In this document: one piece after another, positions 4,649-23,384 of the stretch
Layout of the letters: each line of letters opens with the position of its first letter
How positions within the stretch are numbered: the stretch's first letter is position 1
IMG/VR virus record: IMGVR_UViG_3300027806_000001
Location: 96,001 to 160,000 of that record
Length of the DNA stretch: 64,000 bases
DNA from: a virus
Direction: 5' to 3' (one strand)
Translations under genes and position numbers: made by a program
The notes under the pieces: model-generated
The model's database searches: none
Seen by the model: the letters and a program-made list of their open reading frames with translations, nothing else
What the model was told of the DNA's origin: nothing

Positions 4649-5860
4649 TCAAATGCCGAGTTTTCCAAGGTTGATGAGAGTGCCTAGCGCGGCGCCGGTG
4701 CCTTGCATGACGCGCTGCTCGGTCGGGCTGATGTTCATGAAGAGGCCGATGCCCTTGGCGGCCACTGTGCCTGCCAGCGCTCCGGCCCCAGCGCCGACCG
4801 CGGCATGCGCCACGTCCCGCACGGTGAACCACGGCTTGTCCGGCCGGGCCCGGCCCGCGCTGTTCATCAGGCCCAGCGCCTGGGCGTAGGTGATCTGGCC
4901 GTCCTGCCACTGCTCGGCCAGAGTGTCGGCCAGGTGCGCCTTGGAGAGCTGCAGGCTCAGGGGGATGGCGGAGTTGGCCTTGACGGTGTGCTCCGGCTCC
5001 GGGTCGCCCGGCACCACGGCGTTGCGGTTGATCCTGGCTATGGTGGCCCGGGACCTGGCGGCCTGGTCGGCCTGCATCTCCGGGGTGTAGTCCTCGTTCT
5101 TGACGGCGCCCAGCCTCGAGAGATCGGACACCGTGCCAGGGAAGGTGGCCAGCCATGGGGCGCTCATGCCGGCCAGCACGGCCAGCGCGCCCAGCGCCTT
5201 GCCCTTGCGCTGGAACCTCTCGGGGAAGAAGTACTGCAGGGCCGGCACCGCGGCCAGGCCCAGGGCGGACAGTCCCGCCCCGGTCACCACGTTGCCGATG
5301 CGCCTCTGGGCGTCGGCCGAGTACTGGCCCTCTCCGTACCAGGCGCCGGGGGAGTACCCCAGGTACTTCTGCAGGTCGCCCACGGTCGCGCCCTGCTTCA
5401 TGCCCGGCTGAGCCTGGGGCTGCGCCTTGCGAGCCTGGAACTCCCTGGTGGCCTTGAACATGTCGCGCATGGGGTCGGCGGCCGGGGCGGCCGCGGCGTC
5501 GCCCTCGGGCTTGGCCTTCAGAGTGTCGTTGGTCAGCTTGCCCTTGAGCCTGGAGGTGGGCCTGGTCATCTTTGAGACGGTGCCGCCCGGGGTCGGCATG
5601 CCGAAGCCCGCCCCGATCGCGGCGGGAGCCGCGGCCTTGACCCTGGACTCCAGCTCCAGGCCATGCACCACCTCGCGCGGGACGTGGATGCGGAACCCGG
5701 TGGGCTGGTGGGTCAGCCCCACGATGCCGCCCTGCTCGGAGTCGATGTAGAACTCCGCGGGAGCCTGGCGCACCAGCTGGTTGACCAGCGAGTGCTTGGC
5801 GCCGTACTGCCGCACGTCGGAGTAGCCCTTGGCCTGCTTGAGGTCCGAGACGTTCGCCAT
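4649..5860 (-). CDS. Probable virion protein with several K-x-A/G motifs
   Basis: Start trimmed to MANVSDLKQA after SD GAGG; KQA, KAA, KQG, KAN motifs; hydrophobic segments. Confidence 0.6.
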   Translation of the reverse strand: MANVSDLKQAKGYSDVRQYGAKHSLVNQLVRQAPAEFYIDSEQGGIVGLTHQPTGFRIHVPREVVHGLELESRVKAAAPAAIGAGFGMPTPGGTVSKMTRPTSRLKGKLTNDTLKAKPEGDAAAAPAADPMRDMFKATREFQARKAQPQAQPGMKQGATVGDLQKYLGYSPGAWYGEGQYSADAQRRIGNVVTGAGLSALGLAAVPALQYFFPERFQRKGKALGALAVLAGMSAPWLATFPGTVSDLSRLGAVKNEDYTPEMQADQAARSRATIARINRNAVVPGDPEPEHTVKANSAIPLSLQLSKAHLADTLAEQWQDGQITYAQALGLMNSAGRARPDKPWFTVRDVAHAAVGAGAGALAGTVAAKGIGLFMNISPTEQRVMQGTGAALGTLINLGKLGI

Positions 5861-5861
5861 G

Positions 5862-7769
5862 TCAGTTGGTCCTCGTGGCGTAGTTCCCGTAGGGGGACCG
5901 GCCCTGGTCAGGTGGTCCAAGGACGGCCTGCAGCAGGGCGGGATCGTTCAGCAGCATCGTCATCGTGGCCGGATCGACCGCCTGGCTCAGCCTTCTGGAG
6001 GCATCGACGGTAGGCGCAGGGGACTGCAGAGCTTCCTCCCGGCTCCTGTACCAGTTGGCCAGGGTCTGGTAGGCCTGGGGATCGGAAGCGGCCAGCTCGC
6101 CAAGTTCCGCCTGGGTGCGGGAGTTCTCCGGAATCGCTCCGTAGATCGAGTCCCTGAGTTCCGGACTGACCCTCTGCAGCACATCCATGACGGCCTGCGG
6201 CGACTGGCCCAGGCCCACCAGCCTCTGGGTCAGTTCGGAGCCCAGGCCCTGCCGGTTCAAGGCTGCCTGCTCGCGGTCGAACTCGGCCCTGGCCTTGCGC
6301 TGGGAGTAGGTCTCGAGCCCCTTGAACGGAGCCGAGGCCTCCATGGCGCCGGTGGCCAGGCGGACAAATGCGTTGTCCGGAATGTCCTGCTCGAGCTGAG
6401 AGCGGATCACGTCGAGTTCCTTGGTGTCGGGATAGCTGACGTTGCCGTACTGATCCACGGGAACCCCCTGTTCGGTCGCGGATCGCAGCACATTCTCCCG
6501 GAGAGGGGCTTTGGAGAGAAGGGAGGCGGGAATGGTAAAGGCCTGCGCGGTGTTCGGGAGGCCGGTCATGCGCTGGGCCGGACCCACGGCGAGCTCCCTT
6601 GCGACTTCGCCAAAGGACGCGTTCGGATTGTCGCCCAGCAGCTCGCCTGCCGAGGAGAGGCCTGCCTCCGCACCCTGGGCGAAGTTGCCCAACCCCCAGC
6701 CGCGGCCCAGGGATCCTAAGGCGAACTGCGTCAGTTGACCCGGCACCGTCGCCGTCGCCCCGGAGCCGGAGAGGACTGCCGGAGCCATCCTGGAGCCGGA
6801 GATGGACCAGAGGGGATTGAGCGCGCTGCCGAAGGCGTTGAAGACTCCCTTGGCCCCTTGTTCACCGAACCCTGCAACCGTGCGCAAGGCGCCGGGGGAG
6901 AGCTTGGAGGAGAACTGAGGCAAGGCGAACGCCCCCTCGTACAAAGCCTTGGGGACGACCCTGCCTGCGGAGCTGACCGCCTGGCCTGCCCGGGCGACGA
7001 CCGGAGCCACCTTGGCCGGCACCGCGGACATGATTTTGCCTCCGGCGGCGGTGACGAGGTTGCCTGCCCGGGATGCCAAAGAGGGCAGCACCGCCTTGGT
7101 TGCTCCGGCTCTGCCGGCGTTGGCGACAAGGGCGGCGTTTCCCTGCCCGCCGGTGGCTGCCGCGGTCAGGGCGTGGGCTCCTGTAGCAAGTGAGGTGCCT
7201 GCCCAGTTCTGCAAGGAATTACGCGCGAGCACGGGATCCCGCTCCATGGCGTCGTACATCAGGAAGGAGTTGACGCCCGCCTTGCCTGCGTCGGGCAGGT
7301 ATTTGGTGTAGTAGGCGCCCTGATCCTCCAGGCCTTCCTGGACGGCCTGCTGGTTGTCTGTCATGTAGTTGTAGGCGATGCCTGGCCAGCTCATGTTCCA
7401 CGCCGCGCTGGCGTACGGCTGCACGGTGTCCCGCCAGAACTCCCTTGGCCTCGCGTTCCTGACGTAGGCCGGAGGCAGCAGGTCCTCCTCGGTCATCCTG
7501 CGGCCCATGATCGGAACGACCGCCGGCACGGCCTGACGACCAGGCTGATCGTAGATGCCGCCGGCGGCCCGGGAGCTGGACGCGGCGCCGGGCCGCGGCT
7601 CAGGCAGGGACGCCCCCACCGGTTCCGGTTGCCGAGTCCTTGCGTTCGACTGGACGCGGCCTGCCGGCGACATCATGCCCATCAGGTTCTGGTTCTGGAT
7701 GCTCTCCAGGGAGTTGCCGGGACCTGGGCCCTGCGCTGACTTGACGTGATGGTCGTATGGCTTGGGCAT
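5862..7769 (-). CDS. Large Ala/Gly-rich protein, possibly an ejected or internal virion protein
   Basis: 635-aa ORF in the structural cluster; no recognisable catalytic motif. Confidence 0.5.
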   Translation of the reverse strand: MPKPYDHHVKSAQGPGPGNSLESIQNQNLMGMMSPAGRVQSNARTRQPEPVGASLPEPRPGAASSSRAAGGIYDQPGRQAVPAVVPIMGRRMTEEDLLPPAYVRNARPREFWRDTVQPYASAAWNMSWPGIAYNYMTDNQQAVQEGLEDQGAYYTKYLPDAGKAGVNSFLMYDAMERDPVLARNSLQNWAGTSLATGAHALTAAATGGQGNAALVANAGRAGATKAVLPSLASRAGNLVTAAGGKIMSAVPAKVAPVVARAGQAVSSAGRVVPKALYEGAFALPQFSSKLSPGALRTVAGFGEQGAKGVFNAFGSALNPLWSISGSRMAPAVLSGSGATATVPGQLTQFALGSLGRGWGLGNFAQGAEAGLSSAGELLGDNPNASFGEVARELAVGPAQRMTGLPNTAQAFTIPASLLSKAPLRENVLRSATEQGVPVDQYGNVSYPDTKELDVIRSQLEQDIPDNAFVRLATGAMEASAPFKGLETYSQRKARAEFDREQAALNRQGLGSELTQRLVGLGQSPQAVMDVLQRVSPELRDSIYGAIPENSRTQAELGELAASDPQAYQTLANWYRSREEALQSPAPTVDASRRLSQAVDPATMTMLLNDPALLQAVLGPPDQGRSPYGNYATRTN

Positions 7770-20306: not shown

Positions 20307-20861
20307 TCATGCCTTGACGTCGATCACGGGATCCTTGAGCCGCTGCTCGTTGATCCACTCGATCAGCTTCCTGGCCAGGATGTCGAATTCGCCGAGCTCG
20401 ATGTCCTCGAACTCCGGGGTACTCAAGGCCGGCCAGTGGCCATAGGTGCGGACTGCCCGCCGGAAGGCCACGGCCTTCACCCCTGCGGCCACGTCGTGGG
20501 CCAGATCCCGCAACGTGTCCTTGCGGTAGGTCTCGGCCTGGGTGGGAGAGTCGCAGCACCTGTCGCCCCTGTCCATGTTCTCGAGATCCACCTTGATCTC
20601 CAAGGCCGCGCCCTGCAGCCCCTTCTTCCAGGCGCCCGGCCAGATCTCCATGGCCGCAGAGGGCTCGGCCGGGGGCGGCCAGGTCATCTCGGGCCTGCGC
20701 TGCTCCAGAGGCAGCGCCTCCTCCTGGGCCAGGAGGGTCAGGACCCAGCTGGCTGCCCGGCGGGCCTCCTGCTCGTCCTCTAGGTAGACGGCCAGGGCCT
20801 GGTTGGCCTGGGCCGGGGTGCGTCGAGTCGACCTGGGGGCCATTGGTTGACGTTCTCTCAT
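20307..20861 (-). CDS. Hypothetical protein
   Basis: SD AAGGA; natural composition. Confidence 0.6.
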   Translation of the reverse strand: MRERQPMAPRSTRRTPAQANQALAVYLEDEQEARRAASWVLTLLAQEEALPLEQRRPEMTWPPPAEPSAAMEIWPGAWKKGLQGAALEIKVDLENMDRGDRCCDSPTQAETYRKDTLRDLAHDVAAGVKAVAFRRAVRTYGHWPALSTPEFEDIELGEFDILARKLIEWINEQRLKDPVIDVKA

Positions 20862-20938
20862 CGTTTCCTTCCTTTTCTCCTGGGTTGCGCCAGGTGTTGA
20901 GTGGACCGGGTGGGATTCGAACCCACGCCTTATCGATT

Positions 20939-21706
20939 CAGGTTTGTGTGACTTTAGTCACTCCCTGGACCATCTCATCGCCTTGGCCTTGAAGGGCTTT
21001 AGGCGTCGGACGCTGACTCCGGTAATTAAGAGGACTTCACCTCTCCGGTGGTCTCTGCACCTTCCGCAGGTGTACCTGCGGCTTGGCTCAGGATTGCCTT
21101 GTGGAGGCGGTAGTGCCGCATCCATTTCCTTACGGCGTTGTCGCTCACGCCGTATTTTCTACCTATGGCAAGAAGGGAGTTTTCAGCAAGATCCTGTGTT
21201 AGATCATGTTTGCTGGGCCTTCTTGATCGGGAGGAGATGGCTTGTTTTCGGCACTGCTCTGAACATGTGGCCTTTTGGGCTCCCTGCAGGGTGGCTTCGC
21301 AGCCTTCACAATATTCAGCCTTTTTCCATTTAGGTTTCCCTGAATTCATCCGATTCGCACCCTCAGCTTTCGCTGAGGGGGCACCGCACGACAGCCAATG
21401 CTCGATCCTGGAATGCTGACCTCTGGTAAGCACCAGCAGGTTAGACAGGCGGTTGTTTGCCTTGTCCCCATCCAGATGATGGGTGACTTCGTCCTCCGTC
21501 AAAGGCCTCTCAAGTGACTGTTCCACCACCAGGATATGCTCGTACACATACCCCTTCCAGTTACTCGAGGTCATTGCAGAAGGATGATCTGGACGGTACA
21601 ACACCCTGTAGCCATTCAAGATTCGAGCTGACTTGTCGCCCATGCTGTGTTCTCCTAAGGGCTGCATTATAGCAGCCTCTCATTTGAACCTAGGTCATGG
21701 GTGCAG
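20939..21706 (-). mobile_element. Group I intron (Azoarcus tRNA-Ile-like, IC3) inserted immediately after the CAU anticodon
   Basis: Core elements GAATTCAGGGAAACCTAA, GGCAATCCTGAGCCAAGC, GAAGGTGCAGAGAC; 3' end CCAGGGAGTGACTAAAGTCACACAAACCTG ending in omega-G; guide GTGCGGTG can pair CAU|CUGCAC with a U.G pair. Confidence 0.9.
21026..21643 (-). CDS. Intron-encoded HNH homing endonuclease with Cys-rich zinc-finger-like and HTH modules
   Basis: YVYEHILV...EVTHHLDGDKANNRLSNL (HNH); CxxC-x12-CxxxC; AIGRKYGVSDNAVRKWM (HTH); SD AGGAG and TGCTATAAT inside the intron. Confidence 0.88.
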   Translation of the reverse strand: MGDKSARILNGYRVLYRPDHPSAMTSSNWKGYVYEHILVVEQSLERPLTEDEVTHHLDGDKANNRLSNLLVLTRGQHSRIEHWLSCGAPSAKAEGANRMNSGKPKWKKAEYCEGCEATLQGAQKATCSEQCRKQAISSRSRRPSKHDLTQDLAENSLLAIGRKYGVSDNAVRKWMRHYRLHKAILSQAAGTPAEGAETTGEVKSS

Positions 21707-21743
21707 ATGAGTCGACGGCTCTGGACCGCTGAGCTACCAGTCC

Positions 21744-21780
21744 GAAAAAAGAGGCCAGGCGGGTTTGACCCCGCCTGGCC
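21744..21780 (-). terminator. Intrinsic terminator between the ncRNA candidate and the tRNA
   Basis: 11-bp stem GGCCAGGCGGG/CCCGCCTGGCC followed by TCTTTTTT. Confidence 0.75.
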
Positions 21781-21799
21781 CTTGCATGTATCAATTACG

Positions 21800-22307
21800 C
21801 TAGCTCCCCTGGACCCGGACATGCAGCCGGCCAGGATCACTCTACGCGACATGCCACGCGCTTTCCATGGCATGAAGGGGGTCGAGGGGAGAATCCAGCC
21901 TTACCCCCTCTCTGTAGGCCCACCCCGAGGGGGCCTGAGCTGCGCCATGGTAGCTGGGCGTACCATGCGCTGAGGCTGCTCAGCCTGCGCTTGCTCCGCA
22001 ATGAAGGACGGCCGGCGCTTTGCCAACCCTGCCGTCCGCTGGCGCCGGTTTGCACCTGGAGAGTCCCAGGTGCGCTCCCCGGCCGGGGAGCCCGGCATCC
22101 AGCCGCGAGAAGAGCAGGGCGGCCCGGGTGGAGCCGCCCTGCCCGATTGCAGGACTCCCAGGCGACATTCGCCTGGGTGCCATATTAGCTCGCCTGGTCA
22201 TTTGCCAGGCTGGTTTCACGCGGTCGCCGCCCTGCCAGCGCCGCAACCGGAGTCCCTGGGGTGCAGGGGCTCGCGGGTTATCCGTGCGTCCGAATGATCG
22301 GAGCTAG
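21800..22307 (-). ncRNA. Candidate large (~510 nt) structured non-coding RNA, family unassigned
   Basis: Bounded by a promoter and a terminator; ends pair (CTAGCTCC/GGAGCTAG); more than ten back-to-back hairpins; no credible ORF. Confidence 0.7.
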
Positions 22308-22309
22308 TA

Positions 22310-22339
22310 ATACTACCCCGAATGACGTCCTTGTTTAGC
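22310..22339 (-). promoter_or_regulatory. GCTAAA-N18-TAGTAT promoter of the ncRNA candidate
   Basis: Exact spacing match; predicted start about 22303. Confidence 0.75.
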
Positions 22340-22341
22340 CG

Positions 22342-22554
22342 TCAGGAAAGGTCGTCCAGGATGTCGTCGGGGTCGTCCTGGACGGGCGGCAGGGGCTCCG
22401 GCCTGCGGCTGCGGCGCCCGGAGTGCTGGCCCTTGGGCCTTTCCATGGCCGAGGACCAGGCGCGCTGCGCCCGCTCGTACTCGTCCGGCCCGATGTAGGC
22501 CGAACTGACGATGTCCACGTAGGAGAATCCCGCTTCCTTCCGGCGCCTGCCCAT
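22342..22554 (-). CDS. Small hypothetical protein
   Basis: Has its own promoter and SD GGAGG. Confidence 0.55.
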   Translation of the reverse strand: MGRRRKEAGFSYVDIVSSAYIGPDEYERAQRAWSSAMERPKGQHSGRRSRRPEPLPPVQDDPDDILDDLS

Positions 22555-22606
22555 GGTCCCTGCCTCCGAGCTTCGGTTGAAGGCTCTGATGAACCTTGAT
22601 TACTTC

Positions 22607-22636
22607 ATTGTAACCGGGTATCCGTCCTTGTTTAGC
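22607..22636 (-). promoter_or_regulatory. GCTAAA-N18-TACAAT promoter
   Basis: Exact spacing match. Confidence 0.75.
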
Positions 22637-23384
22637 CGCGCTTCGAGCGGCCCTTGCGGCGCCTCGAGGCCTTGCGGACGGAGTGCTTGACGCCGTCCAC
22701 CGCGGCGAACGACTTTCGAATGGCAGCCAGGTCCATGGTCTCGATGTACGGCTCCCCGTCGATGACCACTCCGCAGGCCACGATGGGCTTCTTGAGGTAC
22801 GCCGAGCCGTACTGCATGAACAGATGGTTGCGGTCCACGCCGCAGCCGACGTTCATGCCCCAGACCTTGGCCGTGGGACCTGCCTGGTAGGCGATGCCGC
22901 AGGCGCTGTGGTAGTGCCCGATGACCGTGGGCTGCATGCGCATCTTGGCGGCGTTGAACGCGGGGTGCTGCCCTCCGCAGCCCTCGCCGTGGTAGTAGTA
23001 GACGCCGTCGATCTCGACGTAGTCCTTCCACTTCCAGCTGTCCGTGCCGTACAGCTCGTTGAAGCCCTTGAGGTACAGCGATGGGATGCCGGCCTTGGCG
23101 TTCAGGCGCATGACCCGGCGGTCGTGGTTGCCGATGGTGATCTCCAGGTCGGGGAAGGCCTGGTGCAGGGCCTGCACCTGGGCGCAGGCGTTGCGGTACT
23201 CGTCGACTGCGCCCATGCTGTCGGGGTGCTTCTCGTGGAAGCTGATGCAGTGGTGGTCGACCACGTCCCCGATGTGCACGTTGCGGTCGGTGCGGTACTT
23301 GGACTGGACCCGGGCCAGCTGCCTGATGTAGTGCCTGTGCATGGCCGGCGCGTGGGTATCCCCTAGCACTAGTACTCTGGACAA
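22632..23384 (-). CDS. Calcineurin-like metallophosphoesterase
   Basis: GDTH, GDVVD, GNHD, YHGE, GHYH motifs in canonical order. Confidence 0.9.
   Translation of the reverse strand: MSRVLVLGDTHAPAMHRHYIRQLARVQSKYRTDRNVHIGDVVDHHCISFHEKHPDSMGAVDEYRNACAQVQALHQAFPDLEITIGNHDRRVMRLNAKAGIPSLYLKGFNELYGTDSWKWKDYVEIDGVYYYHGEGCGGQHPAFNAAKMRMQPTVIGHYHSACGIAYQAGPTAKVWGMNVGCGVDRNHLFMQYGSAYLKKPIVACGVVIDGEPYIETMDLAAIRKSFAAVDGVKHSVRKASRRRKGRSKRG

Follow-up and report, generated by a model that had tools for sequence, protein, structure and literature searches.

A large structured non-coding RNA, possibly of a new class, encoded beside a tRNA-Met gene in an uncultured phage

The 64,000-nt window analysed here comprises bases 96001-160000 of a 183,468-bp IMG/VR phage record (IMGVR_UViG_3300027806_000001) that has direct terminal repeats and a G+C content of ~66%. 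The phage is a member of an uncultured lineage of ~180-kb phages; no cultured phage has a DNA polymerase more than 26% identical to its family-A enzyme, and a blastn search of 50,697 cultured phage records found no DNA match to the region under study. Along the minus strand this region carries a metallophosphoesterase gene, a 70-aa ORF, a predicted RNA and a tRNA-Met(CAT) gene (20902-21743), the last a neighbour that lies outside the RNA. The RNA has a predicted length of ~530-560 nt and occupies 21745-22304 (minus strand, ~560 nt) when counted from its inferred start to the end of a terminator U-run. An AAA_33 kinase gene is missing from the entire genome of the window phage, and the RNA has been retained.

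An earlier note, made from the sequence alone, had placed a non-coding RNA unit at 21800-22307, directly upstream of a tRNA. A minus-strand RNA does lie there, but it runs ~55 nt further 3', to 21745; the tRNA does follow, starting one base after the terminator U-run, but it is split by an intron. Exon 1 (21743-21707) and exon 2 (20938-20902) flank a 768-nt group I intron (21706-20939, minus strand) inserted after the anticodon CAT, and it is because of this split that ARAGORN misses the tRNA. The intron matches Rfam RF00028 at 55.9 bits (21407-20946) and contains a 213-aa HNH endonuclease ORF (21667-21026, minus strand; matches to HNH_3 and phrog_15471) that overlaps the ribozyme core. Splicing in silico yields a clean 74-nt tRNA-Met(CAT), identical at 73 of 74 positions to the intact tRNA of two relatives, L108 and L112; the tRNA-Met of a third, L008, has an ORF-less 249-nt intron instead. 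Homologs of the intron HNH protein were found in unrelated phages with intron-split tRNAs, where there was no homolog of the RNA.

Upstream of the RNA is a promoter-like motif, GGCTAAACAAGGACG-N10-TAGTAT (22310-22340, minus strand; exact motif), whose -10-like hexamer at 22315-22310 gives an expected start near 22304. A promoter had been claimed at 22310-22339, and the motif GGCTAAACAAGGACG-N10-TANNAT is indeed present at 22340-22310 and in two further copies, for which 0 would be expected by chance: one at 22637-22607 (minus strand), with the same 15-mer and the same spacing, and one at 25518-25488 (minus strand), with 3 mismatches. The copy at 22607-22637 stands before the 70-aa gene. Among 113 loci the motif is confined to the window phage. 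At the other end lies an intrinsic terminator (21745-21781, minus strand), a 12-bp stem and U6 that end 1 base before the tRNA; the earlier note had put it at 21744-21780. Its stem and T6 (21781-21752), with 10 of 12 stem pairs G-C, have the form of a Rho-independent terminator, and in relatives the stem has another sequence, its pairing kept by compensatory change. No separate promoter was found for the tRNA 5' exon.

Four further lineages were found in metagenomes (L112, L108/L109, L008 and L002; L004 is the window phage itself). Full-length copies (L008, L112 and L108-L111) were reached through relatives of the phosphoesterase and their contigs, and L002, an IMG/VR contig found via the neighbouring 184-aa protein, ends within the RNA, of which it carries the final 250 nt (93% identity). 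Common to L112, L108/L109 and L008 is a conserved core of ~520-533 nt, from hairpin Pa to the terminator (21745-22277, minus strand), which is 66-70% identical to that of the window and is matched by nhmmer at E values of 5e-52 to 3e-137. The core starts at ~22277, and only the window phage has the closing stem and a dedicated promoter. That the ends of the unit pair (21800-21807 with 22300-22307), as had been claimed, is true of the window, where they form the 8-bp closing stem P1 (5' strand at 22300-22307, minus strand), but P1 is specific to this phage and has no counterpart in L112, L108 or L008. Scans of IMG/VR, JGI metagenomes and GTDB genomes for conserved-block patterns gave no further members; the JGI scan returned four chance matches, one coding and the others without an nhmmer match. 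Given that the first block scanned, GGCGAGCUAAUAU, later proved variable, the early scans were too narrow and the family may be wider.

The gene order in the relatives is phosphoesterase, 70-aa gene, AAA_33 kinase gene, RNA, a ~190-nt element and tRNA-Met, and in L108 and L112 the element is followed by an intact tRNA-Met. The 215-aa kinase ORF of L108 (3641-4288) and L112 (3602-4249) enters the conserved RNA by ~110 nt, an overlap that spans helices Pa, Pb and Pd, and the 146-aa kinase ORF of L008 ends just before Pa. The ~190-nt element (L008:4785-4921, L108:~4770-4966 and L112:~4740-4936) is hairpin-rich and nearly identical in three phages that are otherwise 10-30% different. It has a terminator of its own and a U-run that directly adjoins the tRNA; the window phage lacks this element, and no Rfam family matches it.

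The minus strand of 21744-22310 (567 nt) has a minimum free energy of -322.6 kcal/mol against -264.8 +/- 7.3 for 100 dinucleotide shuffles (z -7.9), and 0 of the 100 shuffles fold as well, although both strands fold about equally in silico (z -7.9 for the minus strand and z -7.6 for the opposite one). The RNA was compared with all 4227 families of Rfam 15 by cmscan, a check that the earlier note had proposed, naming GOLLD, ROOL, tmRNA, RNase P and OLE. At gathering score the neighbouring group I intron was the sole family match. When 2.3 kb of the window (20500-22800) were scanned at E <= 10, no GOLLD, ROOL, OLE, HEARO, RNase P or tmRNA was reported, no other large RNA family matched the candidate RNA, and the group II intron and 6S models likewise had no match at it. 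Its homologs were blank at gathering score, and L008 also at E <= 1; ARAGORN finds no tmRNA. As no Rfam family matches even at an E value of 10, the RNA does not belong to GOLLD, ROOL, RNase P or tmRNA, and it looks like a previously undescribed class of large phage RNA.

A six-frame comparison of the window and L008 revealed no conserved reading frame, the matches being short and hopping between frames. Gaps between the two sequences (lengths 7, 1, 1, 2, 1, 9, 1, 1, 1, 1, 8, 5, 2, 1 and 1) are mostly not multiples of 3, and substitutions are spread over the three phases as 28/20/19, with no 3-base periodicity.

Collecting homologs and checking them for covariation, as had also been proposed, gave a positive result. 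We used a six-row MAFFT alignment (A6), left unedited for the main counts. RNAalifold predicted 150 pairs on A6, 21 of them with compensatory change. For 138 curated pairs on the unedited A6, 91.5% of cells are canonical, 18 pairs show double changes, with both partners substituted, against 10.3 +/- 2.0 in shuffles (0 of 500 shuffles reach 18) and the covariation score is 0.139 against 0.090 in shuffles (0 of 500). When partners were slid by 1-3 columns on the same alignment, only 36-47% of cells were paired and 1-4 pairs were double-changed. Since MAFFT misregisters some rewritten hairpins, we also used hand-set registers; these gave 124 pairs, 98% canonical and 33 of them double-changed, a choice of register that favours structure, and 36-46% pairing with 2-9 double changes in the slid controls. 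With four full-length lineages and one fragment known, the covariation statistics are modest.

The same helices indicate the strand. They contain 45 G-U or U-G cells against 6 A-C or C-A cells, and canonical pairing reaches 97.7% on the minus strand against 89.6% on the opposite strand. G-U being far above A-C, the minus strand is the RNA strand, and it is also the strand that carries the promoter motif and the terminator. Consistent with this, a covariance model of the central domain (R1) scores 106-142 bits on five members in the sense orientation and no more than 17 bits antisense and elsewhere in 790 kb. The candidate RNA is thus non-coding and on the minus strand, with a multi-domain fold under selection and a 3' boundary at the terminator, and we are highly confident that 21745-22304 (minus strand) encodes a genuine conserved structured RNA. 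The central claim of the earlier note, an ornate non-coding RNA outside the known families, is borne out by the empty Rfam result at E <= 10, the missing frame and covariation in four lineages.

The fold comprises ~19 curated helices and a pseudoknot, arranged as 5', central and 3' domains and a terminal module. The 5' domain consists of Pa, Pb, Pd, Pd2, Pe and Pf, and a long-range helix, Pc, may close it. Hairpin Pa (22250-22272, minus strand) has the conserved loop CACCC and three positions that are double-changed between lineages. The remaining hairpins of this domain lie at 22112-22210 (minus strand; Pd 22210-22192, Pd2, Pe 22177-22157 and the 14-bp Pf 22144-22112). Pe has been rewritten in sequence in each lineage with 8 pairs retained; Pd, Pd2 and Pf have one double change each, and two G-U pairs of Pf are retained in all lineages. 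The central domain (22006-22103, minus strand) is formed by a three-way junction, Pg/Ph/Pi (22103-22038), and a hairpin, Pj/Pj2 (22037-22006). Here the inner part of Pg reads GCCGG/CCGGC in the window and AUUCG/CGAAU in L008, and Ph and Pj are invariant and therefore uninformative on covariation either way. In the 3' domain (Pk or Ps, Pl, Pm, Pn/Po and Pp) the hairpins lie at 21850-21984 (minus strand; Pl 21984-21969, Pm 21967-21946, Pn/Po 21928-21876 and Pp 21874-21850). Double changes occur in Pl, Pm, Po and Pp, the Pm loop CG.CCAG is conserved, and the Po stem has a different sequence in every lineage with its pairing always kept. Pc versus Pb-outer/Ps, and Pk versus Ps, are mutually exclusive pairings with similar support.

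All seven local helices that had been listed from the window alone are present where they had been placed, namely CATGGTA/TACCATG, GGACGGC/GCCGTCC, GCTCCCC/GGGGAGC, GCCTGG/CCAGGC, GCACCTGG/CCAGGTGC, GCAGGGCGGC/GCCGCCCTGC and CCCAGGCGA/TCGCCTGGG. The crossing long-range pseudoknot that had been suggested did not hold up. GCUGGC/GCCAGC is present in the window and lost in L112 and L008, and its 3' half belongs to the covarying local helix Pg; CCGGUU/AACCGG survives in part, in competition with Pa and Pg, which covary. We reject both as a pseudoknot. Two other candidates were discarded: a helix Pq (AUCAUUC/GAGUGAU), which has no conserved partner in relatives, and a 10-bp long-range helix of the L008 minimum free energy fold, which has no equivalent in the window.

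A different pseudoknot forms the terminal module (21784-21835, minus strand). The loop of hairpin Pr (21835-21808), GCAUGU (21824-21819), pairs with ACAUGC (21789-21784) ~30 nt downstream, just before the terminator, and a conserved AGCUAGCG lies between the loop and its tail partner. The sixth pair of this helix is U-A in the window, U-G in L002, C-G in L112, L108 and L008, and G-C in L103, a more distant phage described below. As judged from these sequences, the predicted module is a conserved H-type pseudoknot between a GCAUGY loop and an RCAUGC tail. Unpaired stretches that are invariant are CCUGCACC (the Pa loop), GGGAGUCCUG, GUGAUCCUG, AGCUAG and CAUGCAAG. Two palindromes are conserved as well, the hexamer GCUAGC in the single-stranded stretch after Pr (window 21797-21802, minus strand) and GCAUGC in the Pr loop and tail of relatives (window 21819-21824 and 21784-21789, minus strand), and either could pair between two copies of the RNA, the one lead towards homo-oligomeric assembly of the GOLLD and ROOL kind. 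The sequence GUGAUCC (~21836-21842) is complementary to GGAUCAC, which we take to lie near the 3' end of 16S rRNA.

The place that the RNA occupies can be followed into more distant phages. Distant relatives with 45-54% G+C keep the phosphoesterase and a small ORF, and most of those retrieved have a tRNA-Met 1.3-2.4 kb beyond them. The interval in front of the tRNA contains few genes and folds just as strongly as the window RNA does (z -6.4 to -9.4 for 670-1100 nt). Two types of gene-free, strongly folded stretch of 670-720 nt were distinguished there, one in L017, L024 and L028 (L017:4454-5126, L024:5608-6331 and L028:5545-6269), for which 206 pairs are predicted, 19 of them compensatory, and one in L009 and L013 (L009:6358-7090 and L013:4661-5379). 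Neither type has detectable similarity to an Rfam family, and neither nhmmer nor model R1, which covers the central domain only, matches anything in the folded stretches of L009-L014, L017, L024-L032, L045 and L103. Directly upstream of the fold in L009 (6028-6357), and at the equivalent positions of L010-L014, is a gene for a 109-aa protein with a Pfam Cas_VVA1548 match. L103 has the terminal pseudoknot module alone (6300-6381), fused to tRNA-Met without a terminator. In this phage a lysozyme (Destabilase-like) ORF stands in place of the RNA body, a different 460-nt folded stretch lies upstream (5376-5836), and a 9-bp complement to the AGCAAGC strand of the module is found 780 nt upstream.

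ROOL RNAs are about 500-600 nt in size and many GOLLD members exceed 800 nt. Both are phage RNAs often found near tRNA genes, and both form RNA-only cages with a function that is still unknown (bioRxiv 10.1101/2024.12.08.627333). ROOL (rumen-originating, ornate, large) is encoded by prophages as well as phages and has many helices with pseudoknots and no known protein partner or function, and GOLLD consists of a conserved part and a more variable part, one studied GOLLD lying downstream of a Met-tRNA (bioRxiv 10.1101/2024.12.08.627333). The candidate RNA resembles ROOL in being phage-encoded, in having a tRNA gene nearby, many helices and a pseudoknot, and in size. It differs in that it does not match the Rfam model of ROOL at E <= 10, in that no relationship of sequence or helix layout emerged from the comparisons made, and in that it was found only in a high-GC uncultured phage lineage. 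With GOLLD it shares a phage location near a tRNA gene (a 183-kb record, with tRNA-Met one base downstream), but it is 530-560 nt long, and instead of lying inside a linker the tRNA follows the terminator of the RNA itself. OLE, HEARO and raiA are likewise large covariation-supported folds found by comparative genomics, but they are chromosomal, not tRNA-linked and in some cases have known protein partners, and there is no Rfam match to them here. A structured-RNA survey of IMG/VR (PMC10690425) reports motifs of 29-151 nt only, so an RNA of such size is not described in that catalogue as a unit; its candidates are alike in source (IMG/VR) and in type of evidence (covariation).

We favor the possibility, which we consider somewhat better than even, that the locus is the gene of a stable, free-standing, trans-acting folded non-coding RNA of an undescribed class. 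We base the trans-acting reading on the size of the RNA, on the number of its invariant loops, on its location in a phage beside a tRNA and on its having neither a coding nor a simple regulatory logic; a GOLLD- or ROOL-like role in trans rests on analogy and is, to the same degree, probable. A plausible scenario is that, in the window phage, transcription would begin from the RNA's own copy of the promoter motif, near 22304, and would mostly stop at the terminator (21781-21745). Read-through of the terminator would supply the tRNA-Met precursor, which begins one base later; we propose this source for the tRNA because no other promoter precedes its 5' exon. Cleavage by RNase P would give the RNA an identical 3' end, a hairpin followed by U residues. 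In the relatives the RNA would be the terminal part of a phosphoesterase/70-aa/kinase operon transcript, and, since the upstream ORF abuts or overlaps it there, a free-standing transcript would require processing or an internal promoter. The RNA may then act in trans as a folded particle, analogous to the tRNA-linked GOLLD and ROOL, with its invariant loops as contact sites for a partner or for its own copies. Counted against this reading is that, between the window and L112/L108, the RNA is 70% identical and the flanking genes 88-90%.

Of the other explanations, the one that survives best, although we think it unlikely, is that the fold has no independent life and is a cis-acting structured 5' leader of the tRNA-Met precursor, affecting its processing, stability or dosage. 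A leader would fit a terminator U-run that ends one base before the tRNA and a tRNA 5' exon for which no separate promoter was found, and it would fit L103, where the pseudoknot module is fused directly to the tRNA with no terminator. A large fold also recurs upstream in the relatives that keep the tRNA-Met nearby, although L015 and L035 have only a short one or none. The RNA, however, has a strong terminator of its own, and in L008, L108 and L112 there are 220-290 nt before the tRNA, with another element and a second terminator, while in L009-L012 a protein gene lies between the folded stretch and the tRNA. Furthermore, a 520-nt multi-domain fold with invariant loops far exceeds the needs of known tRNA leaders.

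Less probable again is that the RNA is the structured 3' untranslated end of the phosphoesterase/70-aa/kinase operon, acting as an exonuclease block or a cis-regulator. The conserved gene order speaks for it, as does the position of the RNA in L008, L108 and L112, where its start meets the end of the AAA_33 ORF or overlaps it and leaves no room for a promoter. For protection, however, a single terminator hairpin would suffice, and the window phage has lost the kinase gene and kept the RNA, with a promoter motif right before it. Nor do the identities of the RNA follow those of its flanks, L112 and L008 being 89% identical in the RNA and 81.5% in the phosphoesterase.

It seems to us very improbable that the RNA is instead a GOLLD or ROOL that has diverged too far for the Rfam models to recognize. 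The habitat is the same, with a phage setting, a tRNA gene alongside, a length of several hundred nucleotides and a fold that has many helices and a pseudoknot, and one GOLLD adjoins a Met-tRNA (bioRxiv 10.1101/2024.12.08.627333); against this, neither model matches at E <= 10 on 2.3 kb of the window, nor do the homologs give a match at E <= 1 or at gathering score. We give least credence of all to a DNA element (an origin, a packaging site or an inverted-repeat recombination hot spot) or a missed protein gene, for although both strands fold about equally and the module seems to move between phages, the excess of G-U over A-C (45 against 6) means that pairing takes place in RNA from one strand, the promoter motif and the terminator are on that strand, and indels that are not multiples of 3 break any frame.

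The phosphoesterase genes of L112 and L108 are 97% identical and their RNAs 81%, and for L112 and L008 the figures are 81.5% and 89%; this discordance between RNA and flank suggests that the RNA moves as a cassette by recombinational exchange. We entertain, as a tentative proposal and by no means the likelier case, that the slot after an RNA end-healing-type phosphoesterase (sometimes with the kinase) and before tRNA-Met holds interchangeable structured RNAs of 520-720 nt, the window RNA being one type, that these types, which share no detectable sequence or domain, are swapped as cassettes, and that together they form a new group of ornate RNAs linked to tRNAs and serving one shared purpose. 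Such a purpose could be, for example, to form RNA-only assemblies, or to serve as decoys or shields in a phage-host defence conflict over tRNAs.

To our knowledge, few RNAs longer than 500 nt from phages or bacteria have a complex conserved fold while lacking a known function. OLE, GOLLD, ROOL and raiA each opened new biology, most recently with the RNA-only cages seen by cryo-EM. The candidate RNA would add one that is unrelated to these, encoded by a large uncultured phage of high G+C content, and it comes with a compact set of homologs that already defines most of its helices. A locus at which unrelated large folded RNAs replace one another beside the same tRNA gene would be a natural experiment on the role of such RNAs. 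It would allow the reason for the linkage of giant phage RNAs to tRNA genes to be tested through comparison and also, with no need for a cultured host, through transcription in vitro and structural studies.
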